From a virus (lineage: Duplodnaviria; Heunggongvirae; Uroviricota; Caudoviricetes): 16,532 bases of DNA. This document shows, one piece after another, positions 12,001 to 15,000 of the stretch. How positions within the stretch are numbered: the stretch's first letter is position 1; the number at the start of each line of letters is the position of its first letter. Location of the stretch: IMG/VR virus record IMGVR_UViG_2541047434_000024; one strand, written 5' to 3'. Position numbers: made by a program.

Positions 12001-15000
12001 TGGCGCGCGTCGCTGGTTAGCCAGAAACACTGACTGATGAGGTTGACGATGGAATTTAAAGATTTACCTCCTTCAATCCAGGAGATTGCAGCACACACAC
12101 TTCGTCATCGTCTGAACGAACTTGAATTGGAATCGGTAACGAAAAAAGACACTGATAATATGGCTCGTAATGTGCGCGATGCGTTTACCGGATTGTATTT
12201 CTGTGCGTCTATAAATAAACACGACTCAGAGAGTGTGGCAAATAAAATTGCAGAAACGACAGCGCAAAACATCAATACGAAACCAACGGAAGAAGAAATT
12301 GATCAGTTTGCTCATGATGCTGGTTTAAAAAACAAGAAAGAAAAATCGCCATATGCGGGGAACATGTTTGTTTATGACAATCTCATCAGAATTCGTGGCG
12401 AAATTCCGGCGGAATACCTGGCAAGAGTCCATCAGGCATTGCTTAAAAATTTGGAAACAGAATTATTTGATGGCAACACTAACGGTTTCTTCATGGTATC
12501 AGGCCTTGAGAAAGACTGGGATGCAGAAAAACGCTGGAATGTTGCTACATGGTTATTCAGTAACAGAGCCGCTGCACTGGAAGCTTCGGCATGTATTTGC
12601 GGCCTGTTCTTAACAGACCACAAATATAATCTGGATGTGTACAGTTATATTTACGCTGAACACGGTCCACTCTGGATTGACTGGTAATTATAAGGAAACA
12701 CCAGCAGGGCCGCGGCGACCAACAGAACGATTAAAATCAATAATGCCATTATAAAGGACATTATTTAATTTATCGTCGAATGCTGATTCTGTGAGCCTCA
12801 ACTCTGAATGAGTTTTTAATAACCCTGATTGCCTGAGTTGATTTACCAGGCATTCAATCTGTTTTTCAATAAGCGGATTTCTTTTTTTGTTTGGCATTTT
12901 ATCCTCCATTGAGGTTCTGGGTTAAAAATGGAGACCAACACGCTGTCACGTGTGGTCGTGCGCCGGACACGGATAAGAATCCGGTACTGACAGTTTACTG
13001 AAAGGATATTTCCCTGAAAAGTCAGTGCATAACGCGAAAGCGTACGGCGAAGCTCTTTCCCTTAGAAGGCTTGTCGTTAGATTTCTTCGAACGTGCGCTT
13101 CCGGTTGTGGCACTCCGCGAAATGGCGCGGCGGTAAGTATGGCGGGGTTATTCCTTCCCCATTGAGGACACCGGGTTGTCAGGTTGACCATACGCTTAAG
13201 TGACAACCCCGCTGCAACGCCCTCTGTTATCAATTTTCTGGTGACGTTTGGCGGTATCAGTTTTACTCCGTGACTGCTCTGCCGCCCTTTTTAAAGTGAA
13301 TTTTGTGATGCGGTGAATGCGGCTGAGCGCACGCGGAACAGTTAAAACCAAAAACAGTGTTATGGGTGGATTCTCTGTATCCGGCGTTAATTGTTAACTG
13401 GTTAACGTCACCTGGAGGCACCAGGCACTGCATCACAAAATTCATTGTTGAGGACGCGATAATGGAAACGTTATTACCAAACGTTAATACGTCTGAAGGT
13501 TGTTTTGATATTGGTGTTCTGCTCAGTAACCGGGAGTTTACTGAAGATGCCATTAACATGAGGAAATATGAGCCTTATCTGCTCAATGATAATTCCATAC
13601 TTTCCCGAATTGCTCTTCTTGAACTTGGTATTTTCGGAGAACGTCAATGACTTCAGCATTTGCACTGATGATGACGGTTTTTCTTATAACGGGTGAATCA
13701 CAGAATGTGATTACCGGAATTTATGCCAGTAAAGAATCCTGCCTCCAGGCAAGAGACGAGCAAAAAATTTCTGGTGAATGCCTCCCGGTAAAAAAAGTAT
13801 CGCTGTACCTGAATAACGAAACACCGGCTGGATAACCCTCCAGCCATATTAACACCATACCAACGGATTAAAAATGCCAGCAATGGCAGGGATTTGTTCA
13901 CCCTTAAATCTGTAATGAGGTTTATCAATGAGCACTGATAAAGAAGAATTTGCGCTATATTGCGAAGCAAAAAATGACAAAGTCAGAAAACGTCTGGGAA
14001 TTAAAGGTGGTTTTTACTGGACTACAGCAAAAAAATTATCTGTTGCCATCTCCCGCTGCATTACCGCAATGGATGACAACGATTATGATGAAGACGACTT
14101 TAAAAAACCCGTTCGCGTCCATTTACCCGTTGTGAATGACCTTCCACCTGAAGGCGTGTTTGATACCGAATTCTGCAACCGATACGAAAAAGGCGGGGAA
14201 GATGGCATTACAATGGTATTTATCGCGCCCTCTCCCTCCGTGCAGGAGAAACCAGCCAGTACTGACAATACCAACGTCAACGGCGAAGACATGACGGAGA
14301 TTGAGGAGAATATGCTCCTGCCGGTTTCTGGTCAGGAGCTGCCCATTCGCTGGCTTGCGCAACACGGCAGCGAAAAACCAGTAACGCACGTTGCACGGGA
14401 AGAACTTCAGGCATTACATATAGCACGGGCGGAAGAACTGCCGGCTGTTACTGCCCTGGCCATTTCTCACAAAACAAAGCTGCTCGACCCGCTGGAGATT
14501 CGCGACCTTCACAAACTGGTACGCGACACTGACAAAGTTTTCCCTAATCCCGGTAATTCAGACCTGGGACTGATAACTGCTTTTTTCGAGGCATACCTGG
14601 ACGCTGACTACACTGATCGGGGTCTGCTGACAAAAGAGTGGATGAAAGGAAATCGTGTTTCGCGTATCACCCGTACGGCTTCCGGTGCAAATGCCGGTGG
14701 CGGGAACAAAACCGATCGCAATCCGAATTTAGTACACACCTTCGATACGCTGGATGTGGAGATTGCAGCAGCCACACTTCCGATGGATTTTAATATTTAT
14801 GAAATTCCGGGCAGCGTTTATCGTCGCGCAAAAGAAATCGTCCTGAAAAGAGAAAGTCCGTTCAAAGAATGGTCCGCAGCACTTCGCGCAACCCCGGGTA
14901 TTCTGGACTATTCCCGCGCCGCTATTTTTGCACTTATCCGGAGCGCTCACCCTGAGTTTTATCACTACCCGGGACGCCTTCAGGGGTATATCAACGCCTA

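Follow-up and report, generated by a model that had tools for sequence, protein, structure and literature searches.

An uncharacterised pair of convergent genes in the variable, sieB-equivalent slot of a dicBF-type prophage operon

Prophage defence genes can lie beside the repressor gene together with a cognate self-immunity function, as exemplified by rexAB and BstA/aba. In lambda, N (35037–35438, minus strand) abuts sieB (34482–35036, plus strand) with zero spacer, and in Rac the order is racR, ydaG, ydaF (a DUF1391 gene), sieB on the opposite strand with a 4-nt overlap with ydaF, then the small RNA (sRNA) kilS and kilR. The sieB gene is expressed from the prophage (PMC10883804), and in P22 it is subject to antisense RNA control and is countered by a phage-encoded escape product (PMC7067206, PMC12197685). 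The analysis reported here concerns two convergent genes, encoding proteins of 212 and 69 amino acids (aa), that occupy the equivalent position in IMG/VR record IMGVR_UViG_2541047434_000024. This DNA of 16,532 nucleotides (nt), here called the window, is a Qin/dicBF-type lambdoid prophage whose host is an E. coli resembling the enterohaemorrhagic strains (EHEC), and its segment from 11600 to 13400 is 99.9% identical to many O157:H7 chromosomes.

It is very probable that the two genes are real, belong together and move as one cassette, and that their place in the early-left (dicBF) operon is a hypervariable slot equivalent to that of sieB. An earlier note on this DNA, made from the sequence alone, had described two well-supported open reading frames (ORFs) with strong Shine–Dalgarno sequences (SDs) and with stop codons that abut without intergenic space, and the ORF calls, the coding sequences (CDSs) annotated in RefSeq and the substitution rates all bear this out. 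The SD of the plus-strand gene is GAGG at 12039–12042, 6 nt ahead of the ATG, and that of the minus-strand gene is GGAGG at 12907–12903, 5 nt ahead of the ATG; alternative in-frame ATG codons at 12037 and 12909 would extend the products to 216 and 73 aa. The two stop codons meet in the hexamer TAATTA at 12685–12690. In RefSeq both products are entered as 'hypothetical protein' from a near-identical O157:H7 chromosome, the larger as WP_000394548.1, with the label 'Ybl81', and the smaller, which ends in ..GRRGPAGVSL, as WP_001133037.1. Each gives a full-length profile match to a PHROG family of unknown function: phrog_2151 for the 212-aa protein (residues 1–212 of 212, E 1.8e-147) and phrog_4274 for the 69-aa protein (1–69 of 69, E 1.2e-51). 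Against intact copies diverged to dS values of 0.3–0.75, the ratio of nonsynonymous to synonymous substitution (dN/dS) is 0.28–0.32 for the larger gene and 0.19–0.27 for the smaller, with lengths constant at 212 and 69 codons; the full range for intact copies of the larger gene is 0.21–0.43, and one frameshifted copy of it gives 0.62. The low dN/dS, the preserved lengths, the SDs and the diverged homologues found in Salmonella lead to the conclusion that both ORFs are real genes under purifying selection.

The 212-aa protein is made up of two segments. Its first 55 residues form an N-terminal module to which the matches with PHROGs 1363, 9419, 6937 and 33007 are confined (residues 1–50/75), and its acidic C-terminal domain (C-domain; pI 4.9) has been found, outside 212-aa proteins, only in Salmonella proteins with a different N terminus. 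The full-length protein has a pI of 5.2, lacks a transmembrane (TM) segment and reaches a KD19 maximum of 1.16. The 69-aa protein, also without a TM segment, has a pI of 9.7 and a KD19 maximum of 0.22. Of 5426 complete E. coli genomes, 597 carry the 915-bp cassette over at least 80% of its length. In IMG/VR every one of 74 loci with the 69-aa gene encodes the convergent C-domain, and the stop codons abut in 71 of them; in an anchor-based survey, which is unbiased in this respect, the 212-aa and 69-aa types co-occur in nine of nine cases.

This linkage extends to diverged copies of both genes in Salmonella prophages with the order Int, CI-like helix-turn-helix (HTH) protein, Cox, plus-strand gene and small gene. 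There the C-domain retains 33–38% identity and the small protein 51–53%; the pair is again convergent, with the small ORF overlapping the 3′ end of the plus-strand gene by 11–53 nt. The Salmonella plus-strand genes have three architectures, and the small partner is present every time. In one of them, the variant P0175, an HTH_3 domain of the Cro/CI type is inserted ahead of the C-domain. The small proteins keep an SGLLK motif and a C-terminal RR.PAG..L motif, and all versions of the small protein are basic (pI 9.5–9.9), as opposed to the acidic C-domain. Database searches and an exhaustive search of representatives returned distant homologues from Escherichia and Salmonella only, a scan of GTDB species representatives returned none, and tblastn of 72,556 plasmids gave no match to the 69-aa protein. 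By these comparisons the 212/69 pair is a conserved unit, and the conserved linkage together with the opposite charges suggests that the two proteins interact.

Two other RNA features were seen in the Salmonella prophages. At about 6100–6160 of locus L127 and 5380–5425 of locus L206 the DicF-type leader is kept, and a different stem-loop followed by a T-run, without a match in Rfam, stands at the DicF position; it may represent an alternative 3′-processed sRNA on the same platform. A C4 antisense RNA, the immunity RNA of the P1/P7 type, is encoded in Salmonella prophages with the diverged pair (L128, 7674–7761; L210, 6582–6669).

The interval occupied by the pair was surveyed in 120 IMG/VR prophage loci, a 16-mer at the right junction serving as anchor and the sequence from the ydfA stop codon to this anchor being extracted. 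The resulting intervals, about 100 in number and 410–1094 bp long, fall into at least 19 layouts; few parts of the dicBF region vary as much as this slot. The usual plan consists of optional ydfB and ydfC, a plus-strand gene whose product begins with MEFKDLP, and a small minus-strand gene. The plus-strand genes have about 55 N-terminal residues in common, followed by one of at least eight unrelated C termini (total 101–212 aa). The small minus-strand genes convergent on them (57–105 aa) are of at least ten unrelated types, none of whose products has a hydrophobic segment, and the nine types other than that of the window have no functional family in Pfam, NCBIfam, PADLOC or PHROGs. All minus-strand genes start 47–60 nt from the anchor, behind one of two alleles of a single leader, each with a GGAGG SD. 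Many alternative cassettes are exchanged in the slot, while its two junctions stay fixed: on one side the N-terminal module of the plus-strand gene, on the other the leader and SD of the minus-strand gene; mosaic breakpoints are frequent elsewhere in the slot, also inside the plus-strand gene. Each minus-strand type occurs with just one plus-strand type, and minus-strand genes can be exchanged independently of the plus-strand gene. Other cassette types of this slot occur in isolated phages: Evi (L211, 3001–3619) has, ahead of kil, a 135-aa gene of the MEFKDLP type that overlaps a 77-aa gene convergent with it, and phiP27 (L212, 2396–2575) has the same leader with a 59-aa minus-strand gene.

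The fixed junctions qualify what had been proposed for the origin of the pair. Its location between the ydfA-like gene and DicF was correctly described, and a simple insert it is not, as the N-terminal 55 or so residues and the leader with its SD are common to other cassettes. In the Qin prophage of K-12 the same interval of the same operon holds, as the earlier note stated, only ydfB and ydfC, of 42 and 72 aa; homology between the window and K-12 breaks near 12040 and returns near 12957. Although found between the same two flanks, ydfA and the DicF leader, ydfB and ydfC are unrelated to the cassette in sequence and both lie on the plus strand. They are ruled out as its alleles by several prophages in which ydfB, ydfC, a MEFKDLP-type gene and a minus-strand gene stand together in one slot. 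The claim that the pair is more AT-rich than its surroundings holds with one caveat. The G+C content of the cassette (12050–12950) is 0.39–0.43, compared with 0.51–0.52 in the immediate flanks (11750–12049 and 12950–13400), but values of 0.40–0.45 are also seen in this prophage for the CI-like gene and the region of dicB. The AT-richness of the cassette therefore stands out only against the segments that contain ydfA and the DicF leader.

By position the 69-aa gene occupies the place of sieB. Like sieB of lambda, Rac and P22, it lies on the strand opposite to the early-left operon, is convergent on a promoter-proximal gene and abuts or overlaps it; and as sieB of Rac is followed by the sRNA kilS and the division inhibitor kilR, so the 69-aa gene precedes DicF and dicB. 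It had been noted that the gene lies antisense in the path of the operon carrying these two, and both are indeed found downstream on the plus strand. The expectation of an immunity-adjacent cargo slot, variable among related prophages, is likewise supported by the sieB equivalents in Rac and lambda and by the layouts described above; by analogy of position only, a defence or exclusion role for the pair may be envisaged. The 69-aa protein is not itself a SieB: it does not match PF14163, has no hydrophobic segment and is less than half the size. The SieB proteins of Rac and lambda match this family at 1e-29 to 1e-31 and have KD19 maxima of 1.73–2.19. SieB thus differs from the basic 69-aa protein in its hydrophobic segments, and it also lacks a separate conserved partner gene on the other strand.

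Searches for a known family gave consistently negative results. The only Pfam match of either protein at E values up to 1 was a chance one at 0.12, and members of set A5 had none at E values up to 10. Neither protein belongs to an NCBIfam family, and PDB sequence profiles gave nothing below E 0.4 for either. A fold search of BFVD yielded nothing at E 0.001 or better, and Foldseek found zero matches in the PDB for the 69-aa model. The C-domain resembles ACT and ArgR-C domains, of the beta-alpha-beta-beta-alpha-beta ferredoxin-like class, in a match that is weak and generic and is made with a model of predicted local distance difference test (pLDDT) score near 60. The earlier statement that no family could be recognised is thus upheld across Pfam, NCBIfam, PADLOC, the PHROGs of known function, PDB sequences and folds. 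Two of the tests that accompanied it, by sequence match and by constancy of the pair, were run, and the reading of the pair as an accessory module withstood both. No paper was found that mentions these accessions, the name Ybl81 or the peptide starts, and the main study of dicBF marks the non-K-12 genes of this interval merely as 'not conserved' (PMC5069750).

The leader of the minus-strand gene contains a hairpin followed by the sequence CTCCAT (12933–12928), which is complementary to the SD-containing ATGGAG (12909–12904). Leader alleles are common to unrelated minus-strand genes, and in five alleles a hairpin at this place is maintained by unrelated sequences. The complementarity between CUCC(A/U) and the SD is found in 16 of 16 leader variants, with one compensatory pair, and the 113-nt leader folds more stably than all 200 shuffled sequences (z −3.4). 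These features suggest that the minus-strand genes are under translational control. A candidate promoter farther upstream, TTTTCA-17-TAAACT, is almost invariant among E. coli leaders.

At the stop-to-stop junction a scan detected no intrinsic terminator, and folding detected no significant structure (z −1.2 and −0.7). Without a terminator at this point, it is reasonable to infer that the early-operon and minus-strand transcripts each read into the other. The dicBF operon is repressed by DicA/DicC and toxic on induction (PMC5069750), and a tentative explanation of the cassette, which we hold to be possible but short of probable, can be built around this switch. In the repressed prophage the basic, cytoplasmic 69-aa protein would be made from its own minus-strand transcript, and its SD may be sequestered by the common leader. 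Production of the acidic 212-aa protein would begin only on release from the CI/DicA-type repressor, with the early operon then transcribed in the direction of DicF and dicB. Since transcription of the early operon would run antisense through the 69-aa gene, and the reverse, expression of the two proteins would be reciprocal. The C-domain of the 212-aa protein may bind and neutralise the small protein, or be neutralised by it. In position and logic alike, the closest model is SieB of P22, with its antisense control and its escape function. On this SieB/Esc-like scheme a factor for exclusion or growth control, expressed in the lysogen, would be matched by a self-immunity partner made early in the lytic programme.

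Several findings weigh against this explanation. Neither gene was detected by tblastn in 50,697 sequenced phage genomes. In the Salmonella loci, too, the pair is followed on its right by the DicF-type leader, so that their context is not fully independent and their value as an independent setting is weakened. In the slot survey the plus-strand type P0 was found 15 times with no minus-strand gene, four times with M3 and twice with M5, and type P1 nine times with M1, twice with none and once with M9; cognate pairing is therefore no general rule of the slot, and strict pairing over all cassette types is not borne out by the contingency table of plus-strand against minus-strand types. The short stems of the shorter leader variants are individually not significant in folding energy, and a convincing sigma-70 promoter for the minus-strand gene was not found, the best candidate scoring 8/12, below the scan threshold. 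No defence model of PADLOC-DB v2 matches either protein at E values up to 1. The AlphaFold2 models are of low confidence (pLDDT 59.8 and 61.7), and fold matches are generic or absent.

The exchange of minus-strand genes in the slot, and the plus-strand types that lack one, would also be expected if the two genes were unrelated morons side by side, the larger belonging to the early-left operon and the smaller an independent lysogenic-conversion gene. The recombination junctions would then lie outside the pair, and the fixed junction sequences would carry both genes along. It is more difficult on these terms to account for linkage in 74 of 74 and nine of nine loci, or for its persistence down to 33–53% identity with the same convergent overlap and three N-terminal architectures, when mosaic breakpoints are common elsewhere in the slot and even within the plus-strand gene; chance neighbourhood accordingly seems rather unlikely. 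That the ORFs are annotation artefacts in a non-coding spacer is highly improbable. The missing domains and poor structure models would be in keeping with it, but dN/dS of 0.19–0.43 at dS up to 0.75, frames and lengths kept in intact copies, diverged Salmonella proteins and strong SDs on both ORFs are not.

Two further readings assign the pair a different function. It is conceivable, but quite unlikely, that the 212-aa protein is a host-takeover protein or growth inhibitor in the manner of Kil, DicB or DicF, and that the 69-aa protein is a constitutive antidote that would buffer leaky expression and stabilise the prophage. The operon neighbours are indeed toxic division inhibitors (PMC5069750, PMC6206680). 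One partner is small and the charges are opposite. The RRGPAGVSL C terminus of the small protein could also be likened to degradation tags in which basic residues precede nonpolar ones. Known type II pairs, however, are co-directional, whereas these genes are convergent, and toxin or antitoxin domains are absent from the Pfam, NCBIfam and PADLOC results. A regulatory module is similarly improbable. Here the plus-strand protein would resemble CII or a repressor, and its small basic partner would share in the regulation by binding DNA or RNA. As an alternative, the main task of the minus-strand gene would be convergent or antisense interference, modelled on the action of OOP RNA on lambda cII, by which read-through into DicF and dicB would be throttled. 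The HTH_3 domain that precedes the same C-domain in P0175, the weak and generic likeness of that domain to ACT and ArgR-C folds, which are typical of oligomerisation and ligand domains, the basic character of the small protein and the position of the pair on the way to DicF and dicB, where no terminator intervenes, all favour it. An HTH is nonetheless undetectable in the two proteins of the window itself, the K-12 operon is regulated without either gene, and protein-level purifying selection shows that the 69-aa ORF is more than an antisense RNA.

The proposed exclusion-and-escape arrangement is set in relief by other described systems. Lambda cII and OOP resemble the pair in that the 3′ end of an early-operon gene is overlapped by a convergent transcript, but here that transcript encodes a conserved protein. 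Polymorphic toxin–immunity loci likewise combine a constant N-terminal module with variable C termini and a small variable gene; in the slot, by contrast, the small gene runs convergently, searches reveal no toxin domain, the proteins are cytoplasmic and lack a secretion signal, and plus-strand types occur also with alternative minus-strand genes or none. Known type II toxin–antitoxin genes form co-directional operons, whereas the present genes are convergent in every locus examined; Pfam, NCBIfam and PADLOC reveal no toxin or antitoxin domain in the pair, and HTH_3 appears only in variant P0175. With rexAB and BstA/aba the pair would share the nature of immunity-adjacent, variable prophage cargo and the proposed logic of exclusion and escape, but PADLOC gives no homology to them and the gene order is different.

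Table 1. Features of the cassette and its surroundings, in coordinates of the window.
Feature	Position	Strand	Basis or remarks
CI/LexA-like repressor gene, preceded by a Cro-like gene	10954–11592		
Candidate early-left promoter (P_dicB-equivalent)	11677–11705	+	TTGACC-17-TAAACT, 9/12 in consensus scan
ydfA-like DUF1391 gene, conserved left flank of the slot	11885–12037	+	Pfam PF07151, E 1.2e-29
212-aa gene	12049–12687	+	ORF, RefSeq CDS, phrog_2151
N-terminal module, aa 1–55 (MEFKDLP..NMARNVRDAFTGLY)	12049–12213	+	Shared with at least eight other C-terminal types; PHROG matches, representative search, slot survey
C-terminal domain, aa ~100–212, beta-beta-alpha-beta-beta-alpha-beta	12346–12684	+	Always linked to the 69-aa gene
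69-aa gene	12688–12897	-	ORF, RefSeq CDS, phrog_4274
5′ leader of the minus-strand gene	12898–12970	-	Hairpin 12957–12933; CTCCAT 12933–12928; ATGGAG 12909–12904 with SD; start codon
Weak candidate promoter of the minus-strand gene	12992–13020	-	TTTTCA-17-TAAACT, 8/12, read from sequence
Structured DicF-precursor leader, right flank of the slot	12957–13235	+	Near-identical to K-12; also beside Salmonella copies of the pair
DicF sRNA	13236–13287	+	Rfam RF00039, 76.7 bits, E 9e-16
dicB, cell-division inhibitor, same operon	13462–13650	+	RefSeq CDS 13863–14051 of L001; ORF

The surroundings of the cassette are those of a dicBF operon (Table 1). The candidate early-left promoter lies downstream of the CI-like gene and was placed by analogy with dicA/ydfA of K-12. 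The ydfA-like gene corresponds to the RefSeq CDS at 12286–12438 of L001 and can be aligned to ydfA of K-12; beyond dicB follow a DUF1482 gene and an exonuclease gene. Some other features of the prophage were noticed in passing. The CI/LexA-like ORF is 212 aa long here, and RefSeq gives only a 113-aa LexA-family CDS, equivalent to 11254–11592, in O157 strain MB9-1. Between DicF and dicB the minus strand has a sequence resembling a promoter at 13370–13397, TTAACA-16-GAGAAT (9/12), and RNA started there would be antisense to DicF. The RecE-like exonuclease region (13928–16125) is broken into three ORFs of 414, 183 and 115 aa; from about 15170 it departs from the otherwise near-identical strain MB9-1, which has a single 814-aa gene, and the split represents either a mosaic joint or a decayed gene. 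Elsewhere in the prophage, Rfam identifies the sok antitoxin RNA, beside a hok gene (5839–6013), STnc100 (351–523) and two tRNA genes (1296–1545).

In any case, the pair is genuine, widespread and uncharacterised accessory cargo next to an immunity region; it makes a good candidate for a new accessory function of prophages, and it is not demonstrably a new kind of system. About one complete E. coli genome in nine has it, among them those of most O157:H7 and other EHEC strains, and the operon in which it lies yields DicF and DicB, which influence the division and metabolism of the cell, its resistance to phages and, in EHEC, the control of virulence. A broader generalisation, which seems unlikely though not far-fetched, is that the stretch from ydfA to the DicF-type leader might serve as a dedicated store of two-protein switches of the sense/antisense kind. 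Each would consist of a small effector, made in the lysogen from a common regulated leader, and a cognate C-domain, attached to the N terminus that the early genes share, which would disarm the effector when the phage itself is induced. If so, the slot would harbour a class of prophage systems not described before, for exclusion or anti-defence, which carry their own self-immunity and are coupled through convergent transcription to the host-takeover operon of DicF and DicB. If the pair is an exclusion and self-immunity module, at least ten unrelated small proteins would become candidates for interference between phages or between phage and host; if instead it is a throttle of the operon, DicF output would need to be rethought in pathogenic strains that carry several dicBF loci. 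Whichever applies, the fixed junctions make it easy to search genomes for further contents of the slot.

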